A stretch of 64,000 nucleotides of DNA from Desulfocapsa sp. (GTDB lineage: Bacteria > Desulfobacterota > Desulfobulbia > Desulfobulbales > Desulfocapsaceae), in assembly GCA_013792135.1 (NCBI GenBank), contig VMSP01000124.1, forward strand, positions 16,480-80,479. The letters are read 5' to 3'. Below, piece after piece: positions 8,382-48,004 of this stretch. Made by a program: the position numbers and the translations under genes. Below the pieces are notes generated by a model, which was given only the letters and a program-made list of their open reading frames with translations, did not search any database and was not told the DNA's origin. Positions within the stretch are counted from its first letter, which is position 1; every line of letters begins with the position of its first letter.

Positions 8382-9026
8382 TTATTTGGTGTGACAGTTA
8401 ATACAAAGGGCCGATCCGAAATTGGTGCCATTGAGCAGTCCCGCTCCCAGAGCAGTATTATGTTTGTTATGGACATCATGGCAGGTCGCGCACTCCATCA
8501 TGCCGGCAAACAATGGCAGTTTCTGTACTCCCACAGTTCCGTCAGCGGAGGGGGTCACAAGGCCGACGACTCCGCTACCGGTAAGGGTATCTCTAACGAC
8601 AAGCTCGTTATTATAGAGGAACGAAACAGGATGGTCGTTGCCCAAGTTGTTCGTGCCGTCTCCGAGATTGGCGGCCCCGCTGATATAAGTAGTGCCTGGA
8701 TGGTCGGTATAGGCGTCAAGCGCTACAGTACCGTCGTGACAGGAAAGACAGAACTTGGATAAAGAAGCGGGTTGACCCGGAATTGCAATATCAAAAGTTG
8801 GACTGTCGTACAGAGTATAGGACGCTGTAGTCGGATTATGATTCCACAGGAGGTCGCCTGTGAGGTTTTGATTGTTATGCGGGGCGTGACACGGCATGCA
8901 GATCTGACCATTAGCCCATGATGTTAGGTGGAAATCATGGGCTGACCCAGTGATGACTGCAGGAGCTGTCGAGCAGATACCTAGACCACCAATAAGTGTT
9001 AATGATGCAACCAGTAGTTTTTTCAT
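8382..9026 (-). CDS. Tetrahaem cytochrome c (paralogue of the N-terminal part of the 1207..2961 product)
   Basis: The likely start is the internal ATG giving the signal peptide MKKLLVASLTLIGGLGICSTAPA; the ORF extends to 9086. Motifs: CMPCH, CLSCH, CATCH, CINCH. It shares FCLSCHDGTVALDA / NDHPVSFLY with the 584-aa cytochrome (LCLSCHDGTIALGA / DDHPVSFSY). Confidence 0.85.
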   Translation of the reverse strand: MKKLLVASLTLIGGLGICSTAPAVITGSAHDFHLTSWANGQICMPCHAPHNNQNLTGDLLWNHNPTTASYTLYDSPTFDIAIPGQPASLSKFCLSCHDGTVALDAYTDHPGTTYISGAANLGDGTNNLGNDHPVSFLYNNELVVRDTLTGSGVVGLVTPSADGTVGVQKLPLFAGMMECATCHDVHNKHNTALGAGLLNGTNFGSALCINCHTK

Positions 9027-9736
9027 TTCTCTTCCCCTTTCCCTGAATATTTTAAAATACTTCCATTGGCTGGACGTAAGGATCACCTCCGCAGTTCTTC
9101 AGCAAAGTCGAACAGAGGAGATAAAAATTTATTTTTTAATGCGTCCCTGAATATCCATTCTCCATGTACCTTTGTCACGCAACCCAGCCATGCGCCTTGC
9201 CAGCAACTAACCCTCTAAAATCACAACGACAACACAACAGTTTTCGCAGGCAAATGAAAAAAATCACAGACAAAACCTTAAACGGACCTTACTCTCTCCC
9301 TGCATTTCTTTTATTTAATAGTACTGTAGCCCTCATGAACAAAAAAGAGGGTTTTCCCTATTTCTGAGATGCTAAAAACCTCTGTTTTTTTTGTCAGGAT
9401 GCAGAATCCGTCCTGACTGTGTACAGAGACGTTTGTGAGGCGGTTAAGAAAATCGTTAGTCACGTCTCGTCTAATTATAGTGCTGGATTTCGAATCTTCT
9501 CTACATATCCAGAAACCATTATAATCTATATTACTGCTGTCTCATAAAAGATCAATCATAAATGGCCTAGATGAACCTGTTTGACCGTCGCCCGTTCAAC
9601 GAACGATTTAAATCTCCATGCAATCAACATGTGTTTTCTCCAAAGAAATTGATCTGGAAAAATTTATAAGTCAGCAGTGATCCCATTACCAGACTTGATA
9701 GCTTCACCTGACAGCCAAAGTGACATAGCGCTGGAC

Positions 9737-9776: not shown

Positions 9777-9911
9777 AATTCACTTCTGAATCCCGAGGCA
9801 TTCCGTCCCTGCTTCACAACAGGTTTGGCTTTATTTCATATTGGTGAATGGAAAAATCTTGTCACATTCTTACTACACATTATGATATCTTTTTAATATA
9901 TAAAGTTTTCT

Positions 9912-9999: not shown

Positions 10000-12237
10000 T
10001 CAAGGTGCCGGCATGGGTTTTCTTTTTTTGCTGTCATGGTAATATTTAAATCGAAACAGCGAATCAAGGCCGTGACAATCCTTGCATATCATATTGTAGG
10101 TCTGTATCCGTAAAAAGCTGTTGGTGGCCTTGCCTTCGAGATTATTGCCGGTGCCCTGTGATGCCTGTTTCGGATCCCATTGATGGACATCATGGCATGA
10201 GGAGCAGGCAATATCGCCAACAGTTTTGAAGGCCCCTGTGGCATTGTCAAACAGGGGAAAGTAGTTTGCCTGGTCCTTGCTGTTTCTTCCTGGATTGGCA
10301 ATCAGTTGTTTTTCCGGGTGAGTGGATACTTTGGGCACCTTATTGCGACCCGATCCTGTCTCACTATGGCAGCTGTTACACATCCTGTCCATGATACCTT
10401 TACCGATGCCGTAGTCACGAGCCCAGAGGCGCACCTTGTTTTTCCCATTATGGATGATATGGCAGGCGCCGCAGACTCCGGATTCTGCTGGTGTCTGGCC
10501 CTGCATGTTTTTGGCTTTCGGAGCGGTTATGGTGAGATCGTGGTCTGTCTTTTCTACATATGCCTTTGCCCCATGGCAATTACCACACAAGACGGGTCTT
10601 GGTGCGACCTCAAGACGGAGAAAGCTGTTTTTGGCGTTGCCTTCTGGATTGTTACCGCCATGATCTTCTGGTTTTTGAGGATTCCATTGATGGGGATTGT
10701 GACAGGTAAGACAGGCGATCACACCGTTACCAGCCTTTTTTCCCTGCTTGTCATAGAGGGGAAGCTTGGTATTGATACCCTTTTTGGCAGGATCAATATC
10801 AACGGGATGGGAATGACCCCCGATCACCTTTTTATCGGCCTCCCCTTTGCTCTTATGACAGGTGAGGCAGAGGTCCTGGGCCGGAAAGGTACTCTTGCCA
10901 GGAACATTTCTGGCCCACAAATTCTCTGTCTGCGCTCCGTGCACCAGATGGCAAACGCCGCACACGTCAGACTCCAGAGCCGACTGGCCCCGATCATTTT
11001 TCGTTGTGGGTCCCGTATTCCGCAGATCATGATCACTCCCGACAATGCGGGCCTGTTGAACATGGCATTGCCTGCACAGCCTCTCCGGCTGACCACCTTC
11101 TACCCGGAGAAAACTGGAACTTGGAGGCGTCATCTTCGCCTGTCTGTCTGTTCCTTTCTGGTGCGGGTCATGGCAGGTGAGGCAGGTTAAGAGTGCCTCC
11201 TTTGACTTGAAGGGGATCTGTTTTCCCTTGAGATCATAAACTGGCAAATCAGGCGTCATCCCCTTGTCTTTGAGTGAGATATTGACGGGATGAGCATACC
11301 CCTTGAGGAGTTTTTCAGGGGCCAGTCCCTGCCTGTTATGGCAACTTATACAGAGGTCCTGGATCCTGTTTTCGCTCTTGTCTGGAAGCTCTCTTGCCCA
11401 GAGTGCCACTTTCTTTGCCCCGTGTACCAAATGACAGGCACCGCATATTCCTGACTTTTCCGGGTTCTGTCCCTTGCTGTTTTTTGAATTTGCTGCTGAG
11501 CGTCGCAGGTCATGCCCGGTGTTCAGGACGCCGCCCTTCTCCTCATGACAGTCGAGGCAGAGCTGGGCCGAATCGCGGTTGTTGTCCACGAGGAAATTGT
11601 CATACGGTGAACCATGGACCGTATGACAGGTCTGGCAGATGAGTTGCTTCTTGTCAGAGCCCTCGACACTGCCTCGGCTGAGCATCTTCTCGGGGATTGG
11701 ACGTTTGATTGTGCCAATGGGATGGTTACCGGCAGCAGGGCCGCCTTCCTTGCCCTTGTGACACATCATGCACATGGAAGAGTTATCGTTTGAGGCACGG
11801 ATAAAGACCGCCCTCTCTATCCCCATCTCGCTGGATACGCCGTGGGCGGTATGGCAGGTAAAACACTGCATGTTTCCCTTATCGTCCAGGGGGAAGATGG
11901 CCGGGATTTCCATGCCTGGGGGCGGAGGTTTGTTGATGGGATGACGATGATCGTTGTAGACCTTTCCTCTTGAGTCAGCCACACTGCCGTCATGGCAGGA
12001 AAAGCACATTTCCTGTGAGGCGACAGCCTTTGTTGTCTCCTCATAGGGAACCAGGTCTGTTCCCTTGCCATCGATGAAAAAGGTATCGATCCATCGATAG
12101 TGACAGATCGCACACTCTTTGGCTGAGTTCGGGTTGCGGGGAGGGGGCTGATCGGCGAGAGAGGACGTATGGTGCAAGAATATGGTGCTGAAAAGGAGGA
12201 AAAGGAGGAAAAGGAGGTAGGTTGAGGATCTGTTCAT
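10000..12237 (-). CDS. 18-haem c-type cytochrome with three tandem four-haem modules
   Basis: The likely start ATG at 12237 gives the signal peptide MNRSSTYLLFLLFLLFSTIFLHHTSSLA and avoids overlap with the upstream gene; the ORF extends to 12348. 18 CXXCH motifs counted. Three homologous ~165-aa modules each have the pattern C(G)xCHxxHG...LWAR...C.xCH...HP...C..CH(D/N)xHQ...SFLR...C..CH. Confidence 0.9.
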   Translation of the reverse strand: MNRSSTYLLFLLFLLFSTIFLHHTSSLADQPPPRNPNSAKECAICHYRWIDTFFIDGKGTDLVPYEETTKAVASQEMCFSCHDGSVADSRGKVYNDHRHPINKPPPPGMEIPAIFPLDDKGNMQCFTCHTAHGVSSEMGIERAVFIRASNDNSSMCMMCHKGKEGGPAAGNHPIGTIKRPIPEKMLSRGSVEGSDKKQLICQTCHTVHGSPYDNFLVDNNRDSAQLCLDCHEEKGGVLNTGHDLRRSAANSKNSKGQNPEKSGICGACHLVHGAKKVALWARELPDKSENRIQDLCISCHNRQGLAPEKLLKGYAHPVNISLKDKGMTPDLPVYDLKGKQIPFKSKEALLTCLTCHDPHQKGTDRQAKMTPPSSSFLRVEGGQPERLCRQCHVQQARIVGSDHDLRNTGPTTKNDRGQSALESDVCGVCHLVHGAQTENLWARNVPGKSTFPAQDLCLTCHKSKGEADKKVIGGHSHPVDIDPAKKGINTKLPLYDKQGKKAGNGVIACLTCHNPHQWNPQKPEDHGGNNPEGNAKNSFLRLEVAPRPVLCGNCHGAKAYVEKTDHDLTITAPKAKNMQGQTPAESGVCGACHIIHNGKNKVRLWARDYGIGKGIMDRMCNSCHSETGSGRNKVPKVSTHPEKQLIANPGRNSKDQANYFPLFDNATGAFKTVGDIACSSCHDVHQWDPKQASQGTGNNLEGKATNSFLRIQTYNMICKDCHGLDSLFRFKYYHDSKKRKPMPAP

Positions 12238-12265
12238 AGCAAACTGTTTGTTTGGTGATGCACTA

Positions 12266-13249
12266 TTATTGTGCATTGTCCAGGCTGAAGACGCTGAGTC
12301 GACCTGGAAGCATTTCCACAACATAGAGGCGCATTGAGTCGTCAACAAAGAGTCCCACCGGGGTAGTAAATTTTCTCACCCCACCGCTTACAGGATCACC
12401 GAGGACAGAATGAAATGTTCCTGTGATATTAAAGAGCTGAATCACTCCCATGTAGCTGTCGCTGACATAGGCGAGGCCTTTTTTATCAACAGTGACCCCT
12501 TTGGGCCTGAAGAATTGTCCCTTTTCCACACCCCAGCCTCCGACAAAGGTAACAAACTTGCCCTCTGTGTTCACCACCTGTACCCTGGTGTTGATCACAT
12601 CGACGATGTAGAGATCTTTGTTATGATGCAGATGCATGAGAAAGGGATAACGGAACTCCCACTTCTCAGCCCCTGGTTTTCCATAGCTGTTGACAAGCTT
12701 TTTTGAGCCAATATCAAATTTGAGAATACGGTGATTATTGTTGTCTGCCACAAAGAACCACTTGCCGGAATCATTTACGGCCACATCCGTTGGATCTGCC
12801 TTGTTACCGTTATCGTCCGGAACCGGGATCTCAGATATAAAATCTCCCTTGGCTGTGAATATCTGGATCCTGTGGTTTCTGGAATCGGCAACATAGATCC
12901 TGCCTGATTCGTCAATATCCATACCCAGGGGAAAGGCAAATTCGCCGGGTCCGGTTCCTGGGCGTCCGATGGTGAAAAGATAACTTCCTGATGGAGAAAA
13001 TGCCTGTATCCTGCCATTGACTCCGTCAACCACATAGATGGTACCATTCTTGGCAACGGCCACATCGCTTGGCTGGTTAAATGTACCCTTTATATCAAAG
13101 AGGTGTTTTGCCATGGTCAGTTCGAGTCCATAGGCAGCCGAGCCATAGGCAGTGAGCCAGAGGAGGATGGCAACGGAAAATATGCTGCTCCGTTGCCATC
13201 TGCACTTCACGAGGATTGTACGCCATCCAAGCATAATATCTTTATTCAC
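12266..13249 (-). CDS. NHL-repeat six-bladed beta-propeller protein (paralogue 3)
   Basis: Signal/anchor SIFSVAILLWLTAYGSAAYG. Blades, e.g. PSDVAVAKNGTIYVVDGVNGRIQAFS, PLGMDIDESGRIYVADSRNHRIQIFT, PKGVTVDKKGLAYVSDSYMGVIQLFN. Confidence 0.9.
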   Translation of the reverse strand: MNKDIMLGWRTILVKCRWQRSSIFSVAILLWLTAYGSAAYGLELTMAKHLFDIKGTFNQPSDVAVAKNGTIYVVDGVNGRIQAFSPSGSYLFTIGRPGTGPGEFAFPLGMDIDESGRIYVADSRNHRIQIFTAKGDFISEIPVPDDNGNKADPTDVAVNDSGKWFFVADNNNHRILKFDIGSKKLVNSYGKPGAEKWEFRYPFLMHLHHNKDLYIVDVINTRVQVVNTEGKFVTFVGGWGVEKGQFFRPKGVTVDKKGLAYVSDSYMGVIQLFNITGTFHSVLGDPVSGGVRKFTTPVGLFVDDSMRLYVVEMLPGRLSVFSLDNAQ

Positions 13250-23278: not shown

Positions 23279-24712
23279 TTAGAGAACGGTGTTCGGGGCA
23301 TTGATACTGACCACGAATGCTGCAGGATCAGTAATGCCTGGCTCGGCCTGGGCCACAGTAGCGTCAAAGGTCGGAGTCGCCCTGATGGTAAAGCTGGCAT
23401 TGCCGTTACCATCTGCGGTGGGCCAATTCTGGGCGTTGGCTACAGAGATGAAGGCATTAATGTTGACGTTAGCCAGATCGTCGATATCTCCGGGGATCAT
23501 CAAGGGATCAGCCATCCAGGCAAGGATGGTGTCAGCATCAACCGGAATTGGGGGTCGGACATCGGTACCCACGGAAGGCGCGAGTTCTTTAGCAATTCCG
23601 TCGCCATCGTTATCATGAAGCTGATAATCCTCGCGGTAAGTCATCCACTGGCCTGTACAACCACCATTGGCGGCACCAGCCTGGCCAGCTACTTTATCAA
23701 AATCACCGTCGCAGTTGGCAACGATTAAATTATCAGTGTAAGGATTGCCATCGTCATCGTAGTAGAAAGCACCCTTCATCTGGTTGGATGGCAGCCATTC
23801 ACCGAACAGATCACGATGAACTGCACCGAGTTCTGTGGTGGTGATTGAGGTTTCTCCGGCCAGCAGGCCGAAGGTACCCCGGACATAGGGGTTGAAATAA
23901 CCGGTACCGGCGTGATGCTTGTCAGCGGCGCCGAACAGGCCGTGGGCCATGAGGGAATCAAGTTCTCCCTGATTCATCATCGTGCTTGGGGTGGGGTCGT
24001 AATCATCATAGATAGTGCCGTTTTTGGCACAGAAGGCAATACCTGTGCCGGGGGTGGCTTTTTGGAATTGACCATTAACGATAAAACCGATTTCCTGGGT
24101 ATAACCGGTGACCCGTTGACCAGTCTGGTTGCCATATTTCTGCAGGAGACGATATATATCTGTGTTGCCGTTGGCGCTGACATTAAAGGTCAAATCAACG
24201 GGGCCATCCAGCACATAACTCACCATCTTGAAGCGCTTACTGGATTGGAAGGGATCGGAACATTGCTTGATATCAGTACCCCAGGGCGATTCAGGCATCC
24301 ATCCTGCCGACATAATACAGTTTTCGTTCTTGACATCATCACCGGTGACCACGTTTATTCCTGGCCCCTGCGTATCTCTCTCTTTCCAGGTCATGGCACC
24401 GTTCTGGGTGGTCTTGGTGCTATCGGTAAAGATATTCGTCTTACCTCCGGCAAAGAGAGACCAGCCGCTGGGCATGAAACCGCCACTGGCAACGGCACCG
24501 GTGTTTGGGTCCGTCAGACTGCCCGGTTCCACATAGTTAAAGATGTCAAAGGTAAAAGGGACACCGGTCGCTGCAGCAACCTCCTGGGTCGTCGGCGCCG
24601 GAGATGTCAGAGACATATCCCACTGGCTGACAACATCCGCTTGAGCAACGCCAACTGCGCTCACCATCCCCAGTGCCGCAGCAGCGGCCATCAATTTTCT
24701 ACTTCGTTTCAT
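23279..24712 (-). CDS. Secreted protein of unknown family (477 aa), paralogue of the 25496..26659 product
   Basis: Signal peptide MKRSRKLMAAAAALGMVSAVGVAQA and RBS GGAGGAGG. Blocks shared with the paralogue: GAMTWKERDTQGPGINVV, NCIMSAGW, CSDPFQSSKRFKM, GYFNPY, YYDDDGNPYTDNLIVANCDGDF, GDIDDLANV. Confidence 0.85.
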   Translation of the reverse strand: MKRSRKLMAAAAALGMVSAVGVAQADVVSQWDMSLTSPAPTTQEVAAATGVPFTFDIFNYVEPGSLTDPNTGAVASGGFMPSGWSLFAGGKTNIFTDSTKTTQNGAMTWKERDTQGPGINVVTGDDVKNENCIMSAGWMPESPWGTDIKQCSDPFQSSKRFKMVSYVLDGPVDLTFNVSANGNTDIYRLLQKYGNQTGQRVTGYTQEIGFIVNGQFQKATPGTGIAFCAKNGTIYDDYDPTPSTMMNQGELDSLMAHGLFGAADKHHAGTGYFNPYVRGTFGLLAGETSITTTELGAVHRDLFGEWLPSNQMKGAFYYDDDGNPYTDNLIVANCDGDFDKVAGQAGAANGGCTGQWMTYREDYQLHDNDGDGIAKELAPSVGTDVRPPIPVDADTILAWMADPLMIPGDIDDLANVNINAFISVANAQNWPTADGNGNASFTIRATPTFDATVAQAEPGITDPAAFVVSINAPNTVL

Positions 24713-24909
24713 AGCTTTTCCTCCTCCAAGATTAATAAGGATACTACCCTTTGCTTAATCCTTGGGAATGCATAACACGTACCAGAAAGACACAAGGAAA
24801 TATTTTTGGCAGTAAAAAACTGTCAACTATACGTGATGACGATGTTATTCTTAAAAAAATGTTGTTACTAGAAAAAAACAGAGGGGAACATCACTCTCAG
24901 TGATTAGAA

Positions 24910-25495: not shown

Positions 25496-26659
25496 TTAAT
25501 ATATCGGATAAAAGCGCATTACGAACTGGGTCGGGGTCGGCCATTTGGAGTTAGTTTTGCCAACCGTGATGTAGTAGTTCAAGCCAAGATTGGCAAGGTC
25601 TTCGATCGGGCCGTTCAAGTACAGATAGTTCGACTGCCAGGCTGCCAGTTCGTCTTCAGGAACAGGCTTCTTGATTCCGTCAGAGGGATAGGGAAGGCCG
25701 TTGGCATCAAGCCCAGCCTGACTGCGGTAGGTTACCCAGGTACCATCGCAGTAGCCAGTTTCCGCGATCGCGTCGGTCACCACGAAATTGCCGTCGCAGT
25801 TAGCCATCAAGATGTTGTCGGTGTTAACGTTGTCATCATCGTCATAGTAATAAGCCCAAGGGACACTGGCCAGGTTGTTCCAGTCGCCGAACATTGCATA
25901 GTAGTTGGAAGTGATCAGACCGGTGGAAATCGTGTCTTCCGTTGCGTTGAGCAGGTAACCCATGCGGTAGAGCGGGTCAAAGTAGCCGGTAGTTGGATGA
26001 TTGGCATCGGCAGGCCCGGCCAATCCTTGAGCGTAGACAGCAGAAAGCACATCGGCAGACTGAACAGTAGAGGTGGTCGTGGTGAAATATTTACCCTTGT
26101 TGGTGGAGAATCCAAGGCCGTCAAGAGACTTGGATTTGGTGAACACGCCGTTGACCATGAAGCCCAGTTCAGCCCTGAAGCCTTTCCACTTTCTGATATC
26201 GCCATCGGTCAGCTTCTGCATGGAGTTGTAGATGCTGACATTTGTGTCGATTGCAGTGGTGAAGTACACGTCGATCGGCTGGCCGTTGGTTCCCTTGACC
26301 TTCCAGCGCTTACTGGACTTTAACGGGTCGGTGCACATTTTGTCACTAAAGTCATAAGGGTTGTAGCCAGTGGTCATGATGCACTTGAGACCGCTGACAT
26401 CGTCAGCATTAACAATCTTCATGCCCGGAGCCTTGACATCGGTCTCTTTCCAGGTGATCGCGCCGTTGGTTGCAGTCTTGGCAGCAGTGGTGTAGAGCGT
26501 GCTGGGATAACTAACCCATTCAATATAGGGGGGGGGAGTTACGGTTACATTACTCATGTTCCACCCGGTGATAGTGCCGGCATTGACAATGGAAGCTGCG
26601 GCACATGTACCGAAGGCGGTGAGAAGAAATACGGCTGATTTATTAAATTTCTTTTTCAT
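25496..26659 (-). CDS. Secreted protein of unknown family (387 aa), paralogue of the 23279..24712 product
   Basis: Signal peptide [27 protein letters not shown]. Shared blocks: [77 protein letters not shown]. Confidence 0.85.
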
Positions 26660-26850: not shown

Positions 26851-27035
26851 TCACGGTTTCAGGTGAGTAAACGAAAAACAAGTTTTCCATTTATGATGAA
26901 AAGTAAATGTTTGAAACTATTTCATGCAGAAAATGTACCATAACGATGCAGTAAAACATTAAGGAGGGAGTAACAGTTAACTTCTTGTAAATATGTATTT
27001 TTGTTTTTAACAAAAATAAAGTATTTATCAAAAAA

Positions 27036-27771: not shown

Positions 27772-29448
27772 TTATATTTGATCTTGGACGAACAAGACAA
27801 AACGGTTACGGCCCTGAGCCTTGGCGGCGTACATAGCCATGTCGGCATTTTTTACCAGGTCATTCGCATTGCTAATCTCAGTCGAGGAAAGACAAATACC
27901 GATACTGATCCCTAAGGTGCTCTGGTCTCCACGGATAAGGAATGGCTTACCTATAATGTCCAGAATTTTGGTGGCCACCATTGTGGCTTCACCGGCATCT
28001 TTTATCCTGCTCAGCAGGATGGCGAACTCGTCACCACCAAGCCTGGACACGGTGTCAGAGTCACGCACTGTCTCTTTCAGACGTCTTGCCACTTCTTGCA
28101 GGGCAAGGTCTCCGGTTGGATGACCATACTTGTCATTGAGGGGTTTGAAGTTGTCGAGATCAAGATACAACAGGGCAAAGAGATGGTTATACCGCCTGGC
28201 CTCAGTTATGGTCACGGTCAGGCGGTCAAAAAAGAGATTACGGTTGGGCAGACCGGTGAGTTTGTCAAAATTTGCCAGAAATTCCAGGTTGTCACGTTGT
28301 TCTTTGAGTTCGCTGATATCACGGGCCATACAGGAAATACCTTGCAGGGTGCCGTCAGGAAGATAGATGGGGCTTGCTGAAAACAACACCGGGATGGGCA
28401 GTTCATTATAACCAGTATAAAAGGCCTCAATATTGGCAACGACTTTGCCTTCGAGAAACCCATGGAAGAGGGAATCGACAATGGACTTTTCATCATGGCT
28501 GAAAATAGTCCGGAAGGGACGGCCTTCTAATTCCTCCTTAGAGAAACGCAGGAGACTTAGGGTTGCGTGATTGGTGGTTTGAACAGTCAGGTCGGGGGTT
28601 AAGACAATGAGTGAATCTGACATATTGTTGATAATATTATCAACATAGTTCCGAGAGACAGTTATGAGCTGAAGATCGGAAGTCATTTGCCAGAATGAGC
28701 TTGCCAACTCCTGAATCTCATCTCCTCTTCGACTGCTCTGCGGTTTTTCGATAGTTCTTCCGCGACCAAAATTATCAATCATCAGTTTTAATTTCCCAAG
28801 AGGATCAATAATTTCCCTATTTGCGAGCCAGTTAACCACCACAATAGCTATAAGGAGAGACAGGGTAAAAACGATAGCAAGGAAGCGGGTGAGGAAATCA
28901 ATACGCTGCTTATTTTTCTCAAAATCCTCATTAATAATCTCCTGCAGCCTCCCGGCTACTTCTTTAAAGTCGACAGAAAGGCTTGCCTGTAGTTTTCCAA
29001 GCTGATGTATCTCGTTACGGAAGGCAAAGATATCATTCTTTTGCACCGCCTCTAAGTAATACTGAGAGGCCATAACGTAATAATTGTTGTATTCATCCCG
29101 TAAGGAAAGGATGCGAGGAGATAAATCATTATTATTATTGATATCAGACAATTGTACCATCTCATCCAGCAGGGGAGCTATCTGGTTATGAAGGATATTG
29201 GCCTGGTGTACCTCTACCTGCTCACCGGCGAGGAGGCCGTTTTCATACTCTTGACTCTGGGTGTTAAACAGGCTGTTAGCAAGATCCCCTTTAGAAAGGA
29301 GAGGCAGATCGATCCTTTGTGCGTGAGTGATGAAAATTTTAGTCTCGTTATTCACCCAGGTGGTAGCCAGAGTGGCAGCAAGATAACTCAGGAGGGCCAC
29401 GCTTCCACAGGCCCAAATTTTACAGCGAATACTGCAGAGGATATTCAT
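27772..29448 (-). CDS. Membrane-bound diguanylate cyclase (periplasmic helical sensor, HAMP, PAS, GGDEF)
   Basis: Two TM segments. HAMP-like linker. PAS region (LIVLTPDLTVQTTNHA...). GGDEF domain with RLGGDEFAILL and the DxLTGLPNR lead-in. Confidence 0.92.
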   Translation of the reverse strand: MNILCSIRCKIWACGSVALLSYLAATLATTWVNNETKIFITHAQRIDLPLLSKGDLANSLFNTQSQEYENGLLAGEQVEVHQANILHNQIAPLLDEMVQLSDINNNNDLSPRILSLRDEYNNYYVMASQYYLEAVQKNDIFAFRNEIHQLGKLQASLSVDFKEVAGRLQEIINEDFEKNKQRIDFLTRFLAIVFTLSLLIAIVVVNWLANREIIDPLGKLKLMIDNFGRGRTIEKPQSSRRGDEIQELASSFWQMTSDLQLITVSRNYVDNIINNMSDSLIVLTPDLTVQTTNHATLSLLRFSKEELEGRPFRTIFSHDEKSIVDSLFHGFLEGKVVANIEAFYTGYNELPIPVLFSASPIYLPDGTLQGISCMARDISELKEQRDNLEFLANFDKLTGLPNRNLFFDRLTVTITEARRYNHLFALLYLDLDNFKPLNDKYGHPTGDLALQEVARRLKETVRDSDTVSRLGGDEFAILLSRIKDAGEATMVATKILDIIGKPFLIRGDQSTLGISIGICLSSTEISNANDLVKNADMAMYAAKAQGRNRFVLFVQDQI

Positions 29449-29456
29449 GCCAAGAC

Positions 29457-29903
29457 CTACTGGAGAATTGAGACAACCTTTACTGCCTGAGTTACCGCAT
29501 CAGGGCTGACATAGCTGATGCCACCCACGTGCTCACCCACAAATGCAACAACATCTTTGTCCGTTTTGAGTGTGGGGGGCGGCATACCCTGGCCGCGAAA
29601 CAACATTTGCTTGCGGAAGACTAAAAACTGCTGTGATGATCGTCTCAGGACGGTATGGCTGAAAGAATCATAAATCTTTGGATTTTCGTTAATCACCACA
29701 CTAATATTTTTTCCATCAGGCCAGCTTCGTTGTTTGTTCAAGAAAATGAGTTCTGCATCTTTGCGGTTGATGGTGGTCACCTCATTATCAGCATTGACCA
29801 CCATCACAAAATCACCCTGTGGCTCTGCACCCCCTGCCCCTACGGCAAAAAGCCATATAACCAGAATAAGGCCACCTGTTCTCTTATTCAGCGTTATCAT
29901 CAT
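29457..29903 (-). CDS. Small periplasmic protein resembling one lobe of a PstS-type substrate-binding protein
   Basis: Signal peptide. DFVMVVNADNEVTTINRKDAELIFLNKQRSWPDGKNISVV...GGISYV resembles the (ivvn..n....l....l..if.Gk...W.dG..i) pattern of phosphate-binding-like PBPs. Only ~125 aa mature. Paralogue at 34868..35293. Confidence 0.7.
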   Translation of the reverse strand: MMITLNKRTGGLILVIWLFAVGAGGAEPQGDFVMVVNADNEVTTINRKDAELIFLNKQRSWPDGKNISVVINENPKIYDSFSHTVLRRSSQQFLVFRKQMLFRGQGMPPPTLKTDKDVVAFVGEHVGGISYVSPDAVTQAVKVVSILQ

Positions 29904-29905
29904 GA

Positions 29906-31111
29906 TTAGAAATTAAAAGAGAGTTTCAGAGTACCATACTGCCAGTATCGCTCAGCTCCCTGTGGATTGAAATACCCCGAGTAGAGGGCAGTACCATCTA
30001 CGGTATGCCATTCGGCCTTAAAGGTCCAATTCTCAGTAATATCATAACGCAGAGATACGGCCAGGTCCTTGCGCCAGGGGTAGGGGTTCAGGGATGTTGA
30101 TTCATAATGATTGTTTTTAAGTCGGAAATACTCATCATAGAGCAGGGAAAGGGTCAATACTTGAGTGGGGGAGTAGCTCAGGAGCATATACCAGGCTTGG
30201 GAAGGGGTATCCAATGTCGTGACATGGAACTGCTCCTGCCGGCGGTCAGTCTCACAATATTCGGTAGTAAAACTAAATTTTTTCCAGGAATATTCGAGAG
30301 AGGCGACAATCTTGCTTTTTATTCGCAGGCTGCTCACCTGGTATTCATTGAGCCACGAGTCGTCATCCAAAACCAACAAAGTCAAGGACCCGCGTAGTCC
30401 TTTAAGTGAGGGATTAAAAAACAGGGCAGCACCATAGACATAATTATTTTGTCGATCCAGATCCTCGGTGCTGAGAAACAACGAATATTGTTGATTGTAA
30501 CGGTTAACAAACTCTGTGGAAGCAAGGGTAGCCAGAGAATCATCTTCATACTGAATACGGCCGCCAAAGAGCTGGTAATCGATGTCCCCCCATTTACTCA
30601 AGAACAGATTGCCATACATATCACCGCCCCAAAGGGACTGCCAGGAATCACGAAGGGTCTCGTCATAAATGGATTGAGGAAGAAAGATGAGAGGACGCAG
30701 GAAGTCAGAATCACGCTCCATATTATAAAGGCCCATGGGCATCTTTACCTTGCCCAGCCTTACCCCAAAGGGGTCGGAAAAATGATAATCGGCCACCAGC
30801 CAGTCGGCGCGGACTTTATCTGTGCTTGCTGCCGGTAAATTACAATAAAGGGCCTGCCCGCCCAAACGAAATTTATCTGTAAGCTGGGCATTGATATTGA
30901 TGCCTATTTCCGTGAGCCGAAAGGTGCCATCCATGGTATCCCCGAGAAAATTATTCTCTACGCTCTCCATGTATCCCTGGGTCAAAAAGCCGTGCAACTG
31001 CACCTTGTTACCAGCTAAATCTATGGCCCAGAGTGATGTCGGCAACAACAGACAGAAAATGGTCGTAAGGAATAAAATCTGTGACCTTGCAGATGGAAAA
31101 AAAGAAGACAT
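29906..31111 (-). CDS. Outer-membrane beta-barrel protein (401 aa), paralogue of the 35304..36518 product
   Basis: Signal peptide. C-terminal ...GTLKLSFNF OMP signature. Shared block VADYHFSDPFGVRLGKVKMPMGLYNMERDSDFLRPLIFLPQSIYDE. The start overlaps the regulator stop by 1 nt. Confidence 0.75.
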   Translation of the reverse strand: MSSFFPSARSQILFLTTIFCLLLPTSLWAIDLAGNKVQLHGFLTQGYMESVENNFLGDTMDGTFRLTEIGININAQLTDKFRLGGQALYCNLPAASTDKVRADWLVADYHFSDPFGVRLGKVKMPMGLYNMERDSDFLRPLIFLPQSIYDETLRDSWQSLWGGDMYGNLFLSKWGDIDYQLFGGRIQYEDDSLATLASTEFVNRYNQQYSLFLSTEDLDRQNNYVYGAALFFNPSLKGLRGSLTLLVLDDDSWLNEYQVSSLRIKSKIVASLEYSWKKFSFTTEYCETDRRQEQFHVTTLDTPSQAWYMLLSYSPTQVLTLSLLYDEYFRLKNNHYESTSLNPYPWRKDLAVSLRYDITENWTFKAEWHTVDGTALYSGYFNPQGAERYWQYGTLKLSFNF

Positions 31112-32457
31112 CAGGATTCAGCTCGCTTTAAGTTATAATCAGTGATTTTTTTGCGGAGAGTGGTGGGTGAGACATCCAGGGTGAGAGCGGTATGGGTAAT
31201 ATTCCAGTTATGCTCAGCGAGTGCCTGGCGTATATATTTTCTTTCGGTGGCTGCCAAGGTGCCGGTTGCCGGACGGGCTGCCTGCTCCTGATTGTCATTC
31301 TGCCGCATGTTCAGGTCCTCGGCATCGATCTCCTTACCATGGGCCAGAACCATGGCCCGAGTCAGGGTGTTTTCGAGTTCACGGACGTTGCCGGGCCAAT
31401 TTCCAGCCCGCAGTTTCAGACGACCGGCAGTGCTGAGACGCAATGGTTGACGCCCCATCTTATAGGCAATTTTGGCAAGAAGATACTCGGCAAGATGGTC
31501 GATGTCACCCCGTCGCTCGCGTAGGGGGGGGACTTCAATGCTCACCACATTAAGCCGGTAAAAGAGATCCTGCCGGAAGGTCCCTTTACCCACCATTTCC
31601 TGAAGATTGCGGTGGGTTGCCGCCACAATCCGAGCCTCAAAAATCATGGTTTTGAGCCCTCCCACCCGGACAAATTCATCCTCCTGGAGAACCCGCAGCA
31701 GTTTACTCTGCAGATCTAGAGACATATCACCAATTTCATCGAGAAAAACCGTACCCTTACCAGCAAATTCCAGCTTCCCTTTCTTGACCTGATCCGCACC
31801 GGTAAAGGCCCCTTTCTCATAGCCGAAAAGTTCGCTTTCAAGGAGAGTGGAGACAAAAGCTGAACAGTTGATAGCAACAAATGGTTGATCGGGGGCTGAG
31901 GCCTCATGGAGAATATTGGCCACCAACTCTTTACCGGTGCCGGACTCCCCTGTAACAAGTACCGTTACTCTGCTGCGAGCCAGGAGACCGATCTGCTTAT
32001 GGATATCAATAATCTTCCGATCAGAACCAATCATTTGCAAAGGGACTACTTTGGGAAGAGGCACTTCTTGGTCATTATCAGCGGAAACATTTTTCCCCTT
32101 TAGCGATTCCACCTTGACCGTCATCTGTAATAGTTCGTCAAGGTCCAATGGCTTTCGTAGATAGTCAAAGGCACCGTCACGCATGGCATCAACGGCCTCA
32201 CTATTTTCCGTATTCCCGGTCATAATGACCACTGTCACGCCGGGCAGATTGGTGAAAATACCAGGCAACGCTTTCAGGCCGTGCTCATCAGGAAGATTAA
32301 GATCCAATAATACCAAGTCGGGGAGCAACTCTCCCAGAGCCGTCATGCCGTCCGAGACATTATGGGCCACGACGACTTGATGACCTTCTGCCTTGAGTTG
32401 AATTTCCAGAGATCTGGCCAAGGCCTGATCGTCATCGATGATAAGAATTTTAATCAT
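31111..32457 (-). CDS. Sigma54-dependent response regulator (NtrC family: REC, AAA+, Fis-type HTH)
   Basis: REC (KILIIDDD..., [14 protein letters not shown]). Walker [17 protein letters not shown] sigma54-contact loop. C-terminal [23 protein letters not shown]. Confidence 0.95.
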
Positions 32458-32463
32458 TACCCC

Positions 32464-34221
32464 TTAATCCTTAAAAATAAGTGAAAAGCTTGCCCCCCCA
32501 TCGGGATTGTTTGCAGCAAGAACCGATCCACCCTGGTAGTCCATTATTTTTTTCACATTTGCCAGCCCAAGACCTGTACCCAATGGACGGGTAGTGAAAA
32601 AAGGCTGAAACACTCTTTCCATCTGTTCCGGTCGCAAGCCAGGTCCTGAATCAGCTACTTTAATCAATGCCACCCCTTCGTTTCCAGTAGGACGCCTGCC
32701 GCTTATGGTGACAACGCTGCCGGGTTCAGACCACTGGATGGCATTGCCCACCAGATTAATCAAGGCTCGGCAAGTGCTTTCCTTATCAGCTTGGAAAAGG
32801 AAATCCTGGAGTTTGTCTTCCACTCGAAGGTCTACATTCTTCTTTTCTGCTTCAGGCTTTACAGTGGTTAAAAACTCATCCATCAGCTTAGCAAAAGTGA
32901 TTGATTCCATGTGAATTTCAATGGGCTTGCTGAACTGGAGTAGATCCTCAAACATTCCGTCAAGGCGACTGACCTGTATAAGCGAAATAGTTGCCATCTC
33001 GCTATAATCTTTGTCATCCCGGAGCTTTCTGGCGATGGCTTGAAGGTTGATCTTAATAGACGAGAGAGGGTTGCGCATCTCATGCACCAGGCTTGAACTC
33101 ATCTTGCCTATCGTGCTGAGGGTGGTGCTTTGGATGATAATTTGCTGCTGTTTTTCCAAAGCATTCATCATGGCATTAAAAGCCAGGCCCACCTCCTGGG
33201 CATATTCTTCTTTAAAAGGAGGCATCCGCTCATTGTGTTGGCCGGCACTAATTTGTCGGGCGACCCTTGTGAGCTCATCAAGAGGGGCAGAGAGACGTTT
33301 TGAAAGTTTTTGGGATAGAAACACAAGTATTATAAAGGTGAGGACGGCCGTGACTAAACCATAAAGGATATACTTCTCAAATTGCTGGAGAGTACTACCG
33401 GTTTCAAACTGACTGATGAGAAGCCATTTAAATTCTGCGATAGGAACAGTGATGAAGTAGTTCTCGGTTCCACAATTCTTGATTTTATGTACTTCCCGGG
33501 GAGGACTGGTCAGTATCTGCGAGGGGACAATATCCGAAACGCACTGTTCAGCGGGGGACCTTTTCTGGTCAGTAACCGAAATTTGATAGAGAATTTTACC
33601 TTTTTCAGAGGCAAGAATGTAGCTGCCTCCGGAGTTGAGATCAGATGCGTCAGCGAGAATAGGACCCAAAGAACGGTTAAGATTGATTTCGGCAACCAAA
33701 AAGGCTCCGATTTTACCCTGCGGGTTCAGCAGTCCCTGACCCACCGGCAGGATGACCTCCTTACCAACATTGCGATAATCATCATCAACAACAAACAGAG
33801 ACCCAGGGGTCTGGAGTTTTGCACGATACGTCTTTGAAGGAGATTGGACCTCATCCTTGAAGTCTTGGGGATAGCGAATGAGCAATGACCAGTCAGGTCG
33901 GTAGAGACTAATGGAGCGATAGGTGAGATGGCCAATGAAAAGTTTCCGGGCCGTTTGAAGAAATATCTCTTCGTCGCTCAGGTTTTTCTTGTCACTATTA
34001 TCCAAGGCCAGGTGATAAAAATCCCGGCGGGTATGGTTTACCCAGGTTCGTAGCCAGAGCTCGCGGGAGTGCAGGGAAAAGGCGAGATGCTCTTTTTCAA
34101 CATTCTCGATGGTCTGCCGAGCAAAATAGTGGTTTTGAAAGGCCATAACCAACAGAGGGAAAAGTCCGGAGAAGGCCATGGCCAGGAAGATCTGCTTGTT
34201 AAGTCCTGAAGATATTTTCAT
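32464..34221 (-). CDS. Sensor histidine kinase with periplasmic (Cache-like?) domain, HAMP, HisKA, HATPase_c
   Basis: Two TM segments flank a ~250-aa periplasmic region. H-box SSLVHEMRNPLSSI. N/G boxes LINLVGNAIQW, DSGPGL, GTGLGL. Confidence 0.9.
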   Translation of the reverse strand: MKISSGLNKQIFLAMAFSGLFPLLVMAFQNHYFARQTIENVEKEHLAFSLHSRELWLRTWVNHTRRDFYHLALDNSDKKNLSDEEIFLQTARKLFIGHLTYRSISLYRPDWSLLIRYPQDFKDEVQSPSKTYRAKLQTPGSLFVVDDDYRNVGKEVILPVGQGLLNPQGKIGAFLVAEINLNRSLGPILADASDLNSGGSYILASEKGKILYQISVTDQKRSPAEQCVSDIVPSQILTSPPREVHKIKNCGTENYFITVPIAEFKWLLISQFETGSTLQQFEKYILYGLVTAVLTFIILVFLSQKLSKRLSAPLDELTRVARQISAGQHNERMPPFKEEYAQEVGLAFNAMMNALEKQQQIIIQSTTLSTIGKMSSSLVHEMRNPLSSIKINLQAIARKLRDDKDYSEMATISLIQVSRLDGMFEDLLQFSKPIEIHMESITFAKLMDEFLTTVKPEAEKKNVDLRVEDKLQDFLFQADKESTCRALINLVGNAIQWSEPGSVVTISGRRPTGNEGVALIKVADSGPGLRPEQMERVFQPFFTTRPLGTGLGLANVKKIMDYQGGSVLAANNPDGGASFSLIFKD

Positions 34222-34301
34222 AACAGTTCAAAAATCCATTTAATAATCGATCTGTTTTTATTGAACTTTTTTTTATAATATTATTTTTTTAAAACAGTAC
34301 G

Positions 34302-34330
34302 AGGGTATCACCATTGATTTTGATTGTCAA
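34302..34330 (-). promoter_or_regulatory. Candidate sigma70 promoter of the kinase/regulator/barrel/PBP/cyclase operon, inside a conserved 37-nt element
   Basis: Minus strand: TTGACA-17 nt (ATCAAAATCAATGGTGA)-TACCCT, about 75 nt upstream of the ATG at 34221. The 37-nt element 34304-34340 is 33/37 identical to 36785-36821. Confidence 0.45.
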
Positions 34331-34867
34331 TTTAGGGTGCCCTTGACTAAATGCTTCATCACTCTCGCATATCCGGGAGTTTAAACAGGTAATTGCTTAG
34401 TTTTCTATAAAGCCACAATGTTTTATGTTTTAAGTTCAGAACTCGTAAACGGAGGTTCAAGATAGTGCAATTTTGAGAACATTTCATAGGTATGGCAAGC
34501 TCACTCATACCTGTTTGCCTTATTTTAACGTAACTATTCACTATAAAAAAGGAGTTTCAGAGTATTTGTTGCCCGCCATCCTGTTATCCAAGCTATGGAA
34601 CTTTTGGCTCGTTCCCCGGCAAGTTTGTCTCGTGTTGAAAAAAAGAGTTTTAGCTCGGCGTATGTTAAGATTGACATGATAAAACCGATAAAAGCCACAT
34701 TGACGCAGAGCCAGATTTTTTTTGCAGATTGTGTTGATCAGTTTCATCGTTGCCTTGTTGTTTTGGGGGAACCGTTACGAAATAGTCTCTGCATTATTTA
34801 ACATTTCCTTGCGGCTACTTATGCCGTTGCTGATATTCAAACAATCATATTGTTTTATGATAACGGC

Positions 34868-35293
34868 TTATTTCAACTGGATCCCTCTGACCGTATCATC
34901 AAGTTGCAAAATATCTATATAACCAATTGCTGCAGGATTGGCGGCAACTTCATTTTTTACGGACTGATCATCCGGATATTCCTTAGGCAGCATCGCTTTT
35001 CCGGAAAAAAGTTCCTGCAGCCAGTATATCGAAAGCTGACGAGGTGACTTACTCAGAATCTCCAGAACAAAGCCGCGGTGAACATCGCCATCAGTCTGCA
35101 GTAATACGTCTATACCATGGCCGTCGGACCAGAAAATCTTCTTGCCGAGAAAAATATTTTTGACCTCAGACTTGTATAGAGACTCAATCGGATTTTCTTT
35201 GTTCACCACCACCACAAAATCAGCGGCCTCAACGCGGTTGGACAGCAGTGTCAGGAGAAGAAAGAAAAGGGAGAGATGTTTTGACAATATCAT
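34868..35293 (-). CDS. Small periplasmic PBP-lobe-like protein (paralogue of the 29457..29903 product)
   Basis: Signal peptide MILSKHLSLFFLLLTLLSNRVEA. DFVVVVNKENPIESLYKSEVKNIFLGKKIFWSDGHGIDVL...AAIGYI. Confidence 0.7.
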   Translation of the reverse strand: MILSKHLSLFFLLLTLLSNRVEAADFVVVVNKENPIESLYKSEVKNIFLGKKIFWSDGHGIDVLLQTDGDVHRGFVLEILSKSPRQLSIYWLQELFSGKAMLPKEYPDDQSVKNEVAANPAAIGYIDILQLDDTVRGIQLK

Positions 35294-35303
35294 TTCCCCT
35301 CTC

Positions 35304-36518
35304 CTAAAAGTTGAATGAAGTTTTCAGAGCAAAATAGTTCCAGAGCCTTTCAACCCCCTGTGGATTAAAAATCGGCATCTGCAGAGCGGCTCCATCCACC
35401 CAGTGCTGTTCCGCCTTGATAATCCAGCGGTTGTTGATATCCCAACGCAGTACGACGCCAAAATCCTTGCGCCAGCCGAGAAAATCGGGCTGTCCATGGG
35501 TGACTAAATTATTGCCGTCAGGATCATTTTTGTCCGCATAAAAAACATCATAAACTGCTGACAGTGCCAACGGTTCAGAGAGATGGTAGCAAAGCTGGAC
35601 ATAGGCGCCCTGGGAACGGCCGTCAGGGATATCTCTGCCCAGAGCCTCCCTGTCTGAGGTGAATTCTGAGTACTCGACGGCAAATTTCCAGTCAGGCTGA
35701 GCGTATTCCAGTGACAGGACAACAAGATCTTTATTAGTGCCTCTGGCAGCACCATCTTTTGTCCCGACTTTAAAAGCAAAGTCGGTTTGCCCCGTAAAAT
35801 ATGAAACTCCCAGCCGCAGCCCGTCAAGCGGGGGAGAATAAAGCAGAGAGCCGCCATACACATACCTGTTGTCAGCCTCAAAATCAGACACCGGCCCAAG
35901 ACCTCTCTGCCGGGTCATCGTGTTTACCAGATATTCCATGCCTCGCGACTGCCCTGAATCCTCACGGAAATCAATTTTTCCGTAATAGGTCTGATAATCG
36001 AGATTACCCCTGTTGCCGAATGAGAGATTGCCGTAGATGCTGCCCCCCATGGCTGCAACAAGCAGGGATCGCTTGTTTTCGTCGTAGATACTTTGCGGTA
36101 GAAAGGCCATGGGCCGCAGAAAATCGGTGTCGCGGCTTTGATTGTATAAACCAATGGGAAGTTTCACCTTGCCAAGACGCAGGCCAAGCCAGTCCTGAAA
36201 GCGATAGTCTGCAACCGCCCAGTCAAGTAGAACATCGTTGTTTCCTTCTTCTCCCACATCACGGGAAAGAAGTTGAAGGCCTAAGCGCAGGTTGTCGTTT
36301 ACCACCGAGTTAACCGTCAGACCAAATTCGTTCAACTGAAACGAACCATCCAGTGAATTGCTCAGAAAATTGTTGTGGCTACTTTTAATGTAGCCTTGGG
36401 ATAAAAAACCGTTGATACTGAGTTGTTCATTGAAATTATAGGCTTGGCAGGGAGTAATCGTTTGCAGGAAGATGAGTCCGGACAGAAAGATGCAAAAAAC
36501 ACCCTGGTATCGATTCAT
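35304..36518 (-). CDS. Outer-membrane beta-barrel protein (404 aa), paralogue of the 29906..31111 product
   Basis: Signal peptide. C-terminal ...FALKTSFNF. Shared block VADYRFQDWLGLRLGKVKLPIGLYNQSRDTDFLRPMAFLPQSIYDE. Confidence 0.75.
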   Translation of the reverse strand: MNRYQGVFCIFLSGLIFLQTITPCQAYNFNEQLSINGFLSQGYIKSSHNNFLSNSLDGSFQLNEFGLTVNSVVNDNLRLGLQLLSRDVGEEGNNDVLLDWAVADYRFQDWLGLRLGKVKLPIGLYNQSRDTDFLRPMAFLPQSIYDENKRSLLVAAMGGSIYGNLSFGNRGNLDYQTYYGKIDFREDSGQSRGMEYLVNTMTRQRGLGPVSDFEADNRYVYGGSLLYSPPLDGLRLGVSYFTGQTDFAFKVGTKDGAARGTNKDLVVLSLEYAQPDWKFAVEYSEFTSDREALGRDIPDGRSQGAYVQLCYHLSEPLALSAVYDVFYADKNDPDGNNLVTHGQPDFLGWRKDFGVVLRWDINNRWIIKAEQHWVDGAALQMPIFNPQGVERLWNYFALKTSFNF

Positions 36519-36783
36519 GGAACCTCTATAAGATAATATTGCTTTTCAAACCCGTAAAAAGGCAGAAGATTCTTACCCATAAGACTTCTAATCTTTTTAT
36601 GGATTAGCAAAAATTGCACTCTTTTTTATGGTAATTCCAAAAAACATTCAAGTTGACATTGAGTAAGCGAGCCGCGCAGTGCAATCGACGAAGGTGCCAG
36701 CTTGAATGCACATTGGGATAACAATATTTTTGGTAAATTAACCATAAGCAAAGTGAACACTATGGAATTTATTCCTTAGTGTG

Positions 36784-36812
36784 AAGGTATCATCAATGAT
36801 TTTTATTGTCAA
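36784..36812 (-). promoter_or_regulatory. Second copy of the conserved promoter-like element
   Basis: Minus strand: TTGACA-17 nt (ATAAAAATCATTGATGA)-TACCTT, about 265 nt upstream of the barrel gene start at 36518. Confidence 0.4.
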
Positions 36813-36835
36813 TTTAGGATGCAATTAAAAGAGAT

Positions 36836-39700: not shown

Positions 39701-39899
39701 TTAAAATTCAAAGTATTCTTGAGATTCACGAATTTTTTTACGGCATGACCGCAAAATTCACGGCGCAGTGCTGCCAGCACTCTGTTTCAAAGACATTTGG
39801 CATTAGATTACCTTGGAAAATAGTCTTTTCACCCAAACTCTGCGTTATGCTTAAAATTTTATCCTCGTAATATTCATTATATGCCTGCGGTAAAATTTT

Positions 39900-47878: not shown

Positions 47879-48004
47879 GTATAGCTTTCCTGCCATTTGA
47901 TTGCAAGAATGGTCTTTCCTTTGCTTTACATTTTGCTGATCATTGGCTAAAGTGCTGTCGATTATTAAATGATATTTTCTAAAGGAATTCTTCCGGTGTC
48001 GTCC

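Follow-up and report, generated by a model that had tools for sequence, protein, structure and literature searches.

What role is played by an outer-membrane barrel and a small secreted protein that are encoded side by side, once on their own and once inside an operon for a sensor kinase, a sigma-54-dependent regulator and a diguanylate cyclase? The question is raised by a locus of Desulfocapsa sp. at positions 27772–36518 of the 64,000-nucleotide (nt) stretch of DNA analysed here (the window), in which all seven open reading frames (ORFs) lie on the minus strand. The reading that we favour, and to which we give an even chance, is that the barrel, a predicted porin, and its partner, a homologue of a single lobe of a periplasmic binding protein (mini-PBP), constitute an input module reaching across the outer membrane, the periplasm and the inner membrane, with a role in signal input and not in nutrient transport. 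This reading draws on the recurrence of the pair beside sensor genes, on mini-PBP domains fused to other proteins and on the altered evolution of a mini-PBP whose neighbouring cyclase gene has been deleted.

Pair 1 comprises barrel-404 (35304..36518), an outer-membrane protein that carries a signal peptide, ends in SFNF and has the fold of a 16-strand porin (from the ORF, an AlphaFold2 model and Foldseek), and mini-PBP-141 (PBP-141; 34868..35293), which is secreted, has a mature length of ~120 amino acids (aa), is equivalent to lobe II of PstS and is orphaned in the window genome. After a gap of 646 nt follow the sensor histidine kinase-585 (32464..34221; two transmembrane segments, a ~255-aa periplasmic domain without family match, HAMP, HisKA and HATPase_c by Pfam and NCBIfam), the sigma-54-dependent response regulator-448 (31111..32457; REC, a Sigma54_activat AAA+ domain with GAFTGA, and HTH_8), the paralogous pair 2, made up of the porin-fold barrel-401 (29906..31111; its start overlaps the regulator stop codon) and the single-lobe mini-PBP-148 (PBP-148; 29457..29903), and the membrane diguanylate cyclase GGDEF-558 (27772..29448; a ~155-aa periplasmic domain, also without family match, between two transmembrane segments, then HAMP, PAS and GGDEF). 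The spacings from kinase to cyclase are, in order, 6 nt, a 1-nt overlap, 2 nt and 8 nt. The gene order and the tight second unit were already described in a first-pass annotation made from the sequence, and the ORF coordinates agree with it. Its statement that the barrels are paralogues of each other, and the small proteins likewise, is confirmed by identities of 40% over 401 aa (E = 7e-92) and 30% over 103 aa (E = 8e-18), respectively, and, as it also noted, no ATP-binding cassette (ABC) permease or ATPase is found among the genes of the locus.

The porin and its single-lobe partner

PBP-141 can be aligned only to residues ~73–187 of 265-aa PstS structures and covers positions 92–186 of the 267 in PBP_like_2 (PF12849; 25.1 bits, cut-off 27), while on TIGR02136 it scores 27 bits against a cut-off of 206.6 and PBP-148 has no match to the PstS or PBP_like_2 family models. 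In Foldseek, the AlphaFold2 model of PBP-141 (predicted local distance difference test score (pLDDT), 87.5) recovered PstS-type proteins only (E = 3.7e-10), with a template modelling (TM) score of 0.65 on the query versus ~0.36 on the target, so that PBP-141 corresponds to one lobe of PstS; no stand-alone single-lobe structure was found among these matches. The partial alignment, the span on PBP_like_2 and the superposition bear out the earlier suggestion that each of the ~140-aa proteins is a single PstS-type lobe, whereas PstS and PBP_like_2 proteins possess two lobes and a hinge. At the R-x-D-G-S-G-T-type loop of lobe II (REDGSGT in 4q8r), which we take from PstS structures to bind phosphate, PBP-141 reads QTDGDVH, and this column is variable across the family alignment. 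The family has a conserved motif of its own, K..Q....W....F.G...PP.

A profile search with the mini-PBP, counted in clusters at the 50% identity level, returned 11,005 clusters at E ≤ 1e-3, 6,665 at E ≤ 1e-10 and 604 at E ≤ 1e-30. Nearly all of the best 150 clusters have a length of 135–175 aa, and thus the mini-PBP is not a truncation artefact; the size of the family and the uniform length of its members, 135–150 aa, refute the alternative, considered in the first-pass annotation, of a truncated pseudogene.

The AlphaFold2 model of barrel-404 (pLDDT 88.8) consists of 16 strands with a long loop L3 (residues 120–154) between strands 5 and 6. The loop L3 narrows the channel in known porins, and the densest run of invariant residues in an alignment of 40 barrel sequences falls in this region (R114, G116, P121, G123, Y125, N126, R129, D130, D132, R135, L140, P141, Q142, Y145 and R150). 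More than 300 porin chains match the model in Foldseek at E ≤ 1e-3 (TM scores ~0.55–0.65), and the matches include ChiP, OmpT, OmpC, Omp32 and OprP. With its 16 strands, long L3 and C-terminal aromatic residue, the barrel is assigned by its model to the 16-strand porin superfamily and is predicted to have channel activity. No Pfam family scores above cut-off for the barrels, with barrel-404 reaching 15.4 bits on Porin_O_P (PF07396; cut-off 20.9) and barrel-401 giving no match to that family, and the sequence has neither a lipobox cysteine after the signal peptide nor a match to the OmpA domain. Orthologues of barrel-404 exist at 98% identity, and database names of barrel homologues are nearly all 'hypothetical', with some OprO/OprP-like.

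Neighbours and fusions of the pair across genomes

A scan of one genome per species provided at least 430 confirmed mini-PBP loci, 80 of which were analysed for neighbours using an anchored same-strand ORF search; these 80 are mostly from the Oxalobacteraceae and the counts are not independent. In 84 of 89 cases, covering 24 of 28 taxon labels, the gene immediately 5′ of the mini-PBP encodes a porin homologue, at a spacing of 2–20 nt, and tandem arrangements of two pairs occur in Rugamonas, Alteromonas, and Oleispira. Among the long ORFs directly 3′ of the pair (n = 58), 31 encode HATPase_c, 11 GGDEF (nine of them also EAL) and three MCPsignal. With both sides counted, a same-strand flanking gene for a kinase, a GGDEF(-EAL) protein or a methyl-accepting chemotaxis protein (MCP) accompanies 61 of 91 mini-PBP genes (16 of 28 taxon labels), at distances of −3 to ~+100 nt between the pair and the sensor gene, which is co-conservation with signalling genes of the kind that the first-pass annotation had anticipated. 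In Oceanobacter (L019), a class III nucleotide cyclase gene lies directly 5′ of the porin gene. What is shared between taxa is the pair with a single sensor next to it. Chemoreceptors and cyclases have no role in controlling transcription, and the pair is therefore more plausibly the input of these sensors than an output that they regulate.

Ordinary uptake, in which the pair would generally be found next to ABC transporter genes, is not what the neighbourhoods contain. A scan for the Walker A, signature and Walker B motifs, approximate in that it missed UvrA, detected the ABC-ATPase motif set within 10 kb of the mini-PBP in one of 80 loci, and the sole ABC_tran match by Pfam among the 58 downstream proteins is an ABC-F type protein.

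Several mini-PBP domains occur as parts of larger proteins. In P0024, a BlaR1-type M56 membrane protease, two mini-PBP domains in tandem make up the C-terminal extracytoplasmic region; the corresponding region of BlaR1 is its sensor domain. In P0103, the mini-PBP is fused to TonB_C and the next gene, overlapping by 4 nt, encodes a HAMP-MCP chemoreceptor. Several tandem double mini-PBP proteins exist as well, and in P0024 and L088 mini-PBP domains are found with transducers and with no porin on those short contigs. Neither a porin gene nor a gene for a BlaI-type repressor was found beside the two fusion proteins, on contigs too short to show one. The fusions argue for the mini-PBP as a sensory module that would work in twos and could be tethered towards the outer membrane.

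In Alteromonas (L028, 6399–10357; also L075 and L077) the arrangement differs, in that a gene for an AMP-binding enzyme comes first and is followed by a mini-PBP, the porin and a second mini-PBP. Sensor genes are absent from the vicinity, and a gene for a TonB-dependent receptor is located ~4 kb upstream. This subgroup may have a different, possibly metabolic, role.

History of the locus

The five-gene operon of kinase, regulator, barrel, mini-PBP and cyclase recurs in three relatives (L084, L085, and L086), with ~85% identity at the DNA level in L084 and with 63–75% protein identity and different flanking genes in L086. In L085 (GCA_002347085.1, 3214–6309) the kinase and regulator, 585 and 448 aa elsewhere, are called as a single 1031-aa product, which is either a real fusion or an artefact of sequencing or gene calling. 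Pair 1 is absent 5′ of the operon in L084 and its orthologues are instead on another contig (L081) of the same metagenome, where a 564-aa PAS-GGDEF gene (1070–2764) directly follows them; the same order of barrel, mini-PBP and GGDEF gene is found in metagenome-assembled genomes of the Desulfobulbaceae. The L081 cyclase is 33% identical to GGDEF-558 from residue 1 onwards, the periplasmic domain included. The identities between the two sets, 40% for the porins, 30% for the mini-PBPs and 33% for the cyclases, indicate that the whole triad of porin, mini-PBP and cyclase was duplicated, and the kinase and regulator are extra members found in the window clade alone.

Alignment with L081 also accounts for the gap behind pair 1. 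Window positions 34860–34668 match L081 961–1151, including the first ~80 nt of the cyclase gene, and 34674–34523 match L081 2798–2946, which begins just past the cyclase stop codon. Because the window matches L081 on both sides of ~1.65 kb of missing cyclase DNA, with the junction at ~34668–34674, the 646-nt gap marks where a diguanylate cyclase gene was deleted (scar at 34523..34860, minus strand) and pair 1 is an orphaned triad. What remains of the gene is an ATG at ~34747 and ~80 nt of frameshifted 5′ coding sequence, followed by the former 3′ flank. The ~650-bp gap of the first-pass annotation is thus right in length and wrong as a plain intergenic spacer, since it holds remnants of the cyclase gene, and the duplicated pairs, paralogous as proposed, do not form one designed unit.

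A 45-nt direct repeat occurs on the minus strand upstream of both units, 5′ of barrel-404 (36778..36822) and 75–120 nt 5′ of the kinase start codon (34296..34340), and the two copies are 84% identical. By inspection the repeat contains TTGACA-17-TACCCT with a TG before the second hexamer, and it is promoter-like in this respect. In the relative that lacks pair 1 at this site there is one copy, 5′ of the kinase gene; the presence of the repeat at both units of the window, set against the single copy in the relative, implies that pair 1 joined the operon by a lineage-specific rearrangement. Judged from these alignments, pair 1 was brought beside the operon recently and only in the window lineage.

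Two further elements were noted around the pair-1 triad of the relatives. A 68-aa fragment of an ISL3-family transposase lies just 3′ of the triad (L081 3175–3381 and L082 3057–3263) and may be relevant to the movement of the triad or to the deletion in the window lineage. A 129-bp intergenic element that is single-copy in the window (39812–39940, 5′ of a glucose-6-phosphate dehydrogenase gene) has an 85%-identical counterpart in these relatives, where it separates the mini-PBP gene from the cyclase gene (L081 828–956 and L082 710–838), and may be a small mobile or regulatory repeat.

The loss of the cyclase gene made it possible to compare the evolution of the two orphaned partners. Since the split from the relative that keeps the cyclase, the ratio of nonsynonymous to synonymous substitution rates (dN/dS) is 0.45 for PBP-141 and 0.11 for its own porin. 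On its own the ratio is unconvincing as an argument, given a value of 0.27 for the PBP-148 orthologues, and it is the lineage-polarised counts that carry the argument. When the 14 amino-acid differences in PBP-141 were polarised with seven outgroups, 10 were derived in the window and two in the relative, and the window protein has lost the family-wide P102 and the locally invariant K92 and T99. Among the polarised changes of the porin, two are window-derived and seven relative-derived, and the contrast between PBP-141 and the porin is significant (Fisher's exact p = 0.009). The counts are small; their direction fits a constraint on the mini-PBP that depended on the cyclase and a constraint on the porin that did not.

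Proposed mechanism, alternatives and candidate outputs

The signalling proteins of the locus could be assigned to broad classes. The regulator matches PF00072, PF00158 (E = 1.2e-64), and PF02954, and with GAFTGA present in its translation it is a sigma-54-dependent response regulator. It remains below the NCBIfam equivalog cut-offs for ntrC (397, cut-off 558.6) and AtoC (386, cut-off 714), the kinase is below that for AtoS (159.6, cut-off 646), and neither reaches the ZraS/ZraR cut-off, which places the two, by these scores, in the generic classes of HisKA kinases and sigma-54 activators. The c-di-GMP-binding residues of FleQ after Walker A, which we take to read KEVVARNLH, correspond to KELVANILH in the regulator and by eye are seemingly not conserved. 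GGDEF-558 matches PF00990 (E = 3.2e-50) and has an intact LGGDEF preceded by an RxxD site (RDSD), from which diguanylate cyclase activity is predicted. Its best NCBIfam match is DgcN/YfiN (NF007423), at 188.6 bits against a cut-off of 325 and confined to residues 379–543, the GGDEF domain.

In the mechanism that we propose, a substrate-specific 16-strand porin would let a solute into the periplasm, where the single-lobe mini-PBP would capture it, probably as a dimer of two lobes, and the loaded mini-PBP would then modulate the periplasmic domain of the adjacently encoded sensor. For pair 2, the cognate sensor would be mainly the HAMP-PAS-GGDEF cyclase, with cyclic di-GMP (c-di-GMP) as output, and possibly the kinase too, and the kinase and sigma-54 activator of the same operon would act on the adjacent genes for choice-of-anchor F secreted proteins. 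We infer ligand entry through the porin, dimerisation, contact between mini-PBP and sensor, and the targets of the regulator from the gene neighbourhoods and the fusions. The first-pass annotation had proposed a trans-envelope sensing device in place of a transporter; the neighbourhoods and the scarcity of ABC genes uphold that part, the mechanism itself is drawn from neighbourhood and fusions, and the third of pairs that have no sensor gene speaks against it. More tentatively, and at less than an even chance, the half-PBP may be a homodimer that closes on its ligand and acts as an exchangeable input for kinases, c-di-GMP enzymes, chemoreceptors, nucleotide cyclases and BlaR1-type proteases alike. 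If true, this would amount to a new class of signalling spanning the outer membrane, periplasm and inner membrane, and the single-lobe stage from which binding proteins have been proposed to arise would have a present-day representative.

Several observations weigh against a sensory module. The canonical anion-binding motif of PstS is absent from the mini-PBP, and ligand binding is for that reason an assumption. About 30 of the 91 pairs have no adjacent sensor gene (e.g., in Alteromonas, Oleispira, and Colwellia), the Alteromonas pairs are preceded by a gene for an AMP-binding (acyl-CoA-synthetase-like) enzyme, the dominance of Oxalobacteraceae in the 80-locus sample leaves the counts dependent on one another, and the rate acceleration after cyclase loss rests on 12 polarised substitutions. 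Further, the periplasmic domains of the sensors are non-homologous across groups (dCache, four-helix bundle, and two types without family match), and any docking must therefore be adaptable, as it is with full-size binding proteins (PMC8050422). A common periplasmic docking domain in the partner sensors was considered and rejected; clean alignments of the periplasmic parts gave no homology between groups, the apparent similarity was due to transmembrane and HAMP segments and to misplaced sequence, and Pfam assigns dCache_1, 4HB_MCP_1 or nothing.

The pair might instead be an acquisition system, a reading that the third of pairs without a sensor gene would favour. A nutrient would then be taken up by the porin together with a protein that traps or chaperones it in the periplasm, and the sensors would detect the compound independently or regulate the pair, with no signalling from protein to protein. 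The AMP-binding enzyme and nearby TonB-dependent receptor of Alteromonas, a porin fold with a specific-looking L3 and the OprO/OprP-like names of some barrel homologues are all in keeping with uptake. Closure of two lobes is what ABC or TRAP (tripartite ATP-independent periplasmic) importers recognise, and a single lobe is incapable of it; no inner-membrane transporter gene lies beside the pair, translational coupling links it to partners of the chemoreceptor, cyclase and GGDEF-EAL types, and mini-PBP domains occupy the sensor position of an M56 transducer, all of which make acquisition unlikely. The mini-PBP might also serve its porin directly, as a plug, gate or chaperone with an indirect link to the sensor (e.g., monitoring of permeability), a role that the almost invariant 1:1 pairing at 2–20 nt and the TonB_C fusion would suit. 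Such a role is improbable given that the orphan mini-PBP, and not the porin, changed its rate after the cyclase was lost, which ties the mini-PBP to the cyclase, and that P0024 and L088 combine mini-PBP domains with transducers on short contigs where no porin is seen.

Another possibility is a ligand-free switch resembling YfiBNR, in which the mini-PBP would hold the periplasmic domain of the sensor until the barrel, upon envelope perturbation, captures the mini-PBP and frees the sensor. The layout is indeed shared, in that a protein of the outer membrane, a small one of the periplasm and a HAMP-GGDEF cyclase of the inner membrane have adjoining genes, the TonB_C fusion suggests contact with an outer-membrane partner, and the loss of the phosphate-binding motif would be of no consequence for a switch without ligand. 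The barrel, however, is a classical 16-strand porin whose strongly conserved L3 points to a channel and not to an OmpA/Pal-type lipoprotein, and the DgcN/YfiN assignment of the cyclase, which would otherwise favour such a switch, extends to the GGDEF domain only. The mini-PBP was rejected as a YfiR relative, with no YfiR match at E ≤ 0.1 and none among its 50 best Foldseek matches. Taken together these points leave the YfiBNR-like switch quite unlikely, and the sensory input module is the reading carried forward here.

Binding-protein-dependent sensing has been described, to our knowledge, for no more than a few binding proteins, all of full size, and the passage of signals across the outer membrane to periplasmic sensors is rarely addressed. 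Examples are LuxP-LuxQ, TorT-TorS, ChvE-VirA, NspS-MbaA, and PstS-CtpL. Such sensing has been reviewed (PMC8050422), and PruR-DcpA (PMC11194511) and CBP-ChiS (PMC12704726) are further cases. As at the loci described here, the gene for the binding-protein homologue neighbours one for a kinase, a cyclase/phosphodiesterase or a chemoreceptor and has no cognate transporter, and the same three output classes are served; the known proteins are full two-lobe proteins without a dedicated porin, whereas here there is one lobe, almost always with its own porin. YfiBNR (TpbB) of P. aeruginosa and E. coli is a three-compartment c-di-GMP system (PMC2837407, PMC4655355, PMC4887326) that shares the joint encoding of its three parts and the receipt of the signal in the periplasm, but YfiB is an OmpA/Pal-like lipoprotein, YfiR belongs to another family and none of the three window parts has a family-level match. 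OprP/OprO and PstS, which act in uptake under the Pho regulon, likewise join a barrel of the 16-strand porin fold to a periplasmic protein of the PstS kind; they differ in that the barrel is below the cut-off for Porin_O_P, the mini-PBP lacks lobe I and the anion motif, and pstCAB, with which PstS is encoded, is absent from the window region. In QseG-QseE, an outer-membrane lipoprotein acts as the accessory activator of a histidine kinase (PMC12691602), comparable as an envelope protein that drives a two-component kinase and different in its fold and in having neither a porin nor a binding-protein homologue.

Single lobes have been described as engineered half-PBPs, used to test whether periplasmic binding proteins arose when a flavodoxin-like lobe was duplicated (PMC10601554, PMC9815098). 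Those stand-alone lobes are laboratory constructs from the type I ribose-binding protein, while the mini-PBP is natural, widespread, secreted and of the PstS-type lineage, and natural mini-PBPs in tandem duplicate exist. In full-text searches of the literature no description of a module of porin and single-lobe binding protein was found, single lobes appearing only as engineered constructs, and the view of the first-pass annotation that no system of this composition had been described still stands. Signalling from a binding protein to kinases, c-di-GMP enzymes and chemoreceptors is known; the dedicated porin and the natural half-PBP set this module apart.

As a sensory input, the module would give a function to thousands of genes annotated as 'hypothetical' porins and 'substrate-binding domain' proteins in the Burkholderiales, marine Gammaproteobacteria, Desulfobulbales/Desulfuromonadales, Acidobacteriota, and Gemmatimonadota, and would supply a candidate input for orphan kinases, cyclases and chemoreceptors. 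A natural single-lobe protein would, in addition, allow tests of how the two-lobe fold evolved. In the window genome, input at the envelope would be tied to c-di-GMP synthesis and to the sigma-54-driven expression of choice-of-anchor F secreted proteins.

Two genes for such proteins, of 387 aa (25496..26659; NF033657, E = 1.6e-86) and 477 aa (23279..24712; NF033657, E = 2.4e-88), lie on the minus strand next to the operon. Both are preceded by a sigma-54-type element, TGGTAC-N5-xTGCA, on the same strand; the promoter candidate of the 387-aa gene is TGGTACATTTTCTGCA (26925..26940) and that of the 477-aa gene is TGGTACGTGTTATGCA (24769..24784), 57 nt 5′ of the gene. The same element is located 57 nt 5′ of the L084 orthologue and at the corresponding position in L085, and in L086 a 42%-identical homologue of the 387-aa protein, inverted beside the operon, has TGGCAT-N5-ATGCA 89 nt upstream. 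Because the position of the element before choice-of-anchor F genes is conserved in four contexts, these adjacent genes are likely targets of the regulator. Enrichment of sigma-54 sites was discarded as an argument, a loose consensus giving 31 matches in the window against 39 expected, and positional conservation alone was used. The two window proteins are 36% identical to each other, and L084 and L085 carry one copy.

No RNA family was found by Rfam within 27772–36518, and scans for terminators and promoters gave counts not above the shuffled expectation. Elsewhere in the window, a c-di-GMP-I riboswitch (9762–9839, minus strand; RF01051, 57.5 bits, E = 1.3e-8) has a multihaem c-type cytochrome gene on either side, being ~680 nt 5′ of the one for a 234-aa cytochrome (8382..9086) and just 3′ of the one for a 782-aa multihaem cytochrome (10000..12348), and may respond locally to c-di-GMP from the cyclase. 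A cobalamin riboswitch is present at 47977–48187 (plus strand; RF00174, 98.7 bits). Downstream of the locus there is a second two-component pair (17656–20291, minus strand), with a 665-aa kinase of the CHASE4-HisKA_3 type and a 213-aa response regulator of the LuxR type, and its synteny is kept in L084 and L085.

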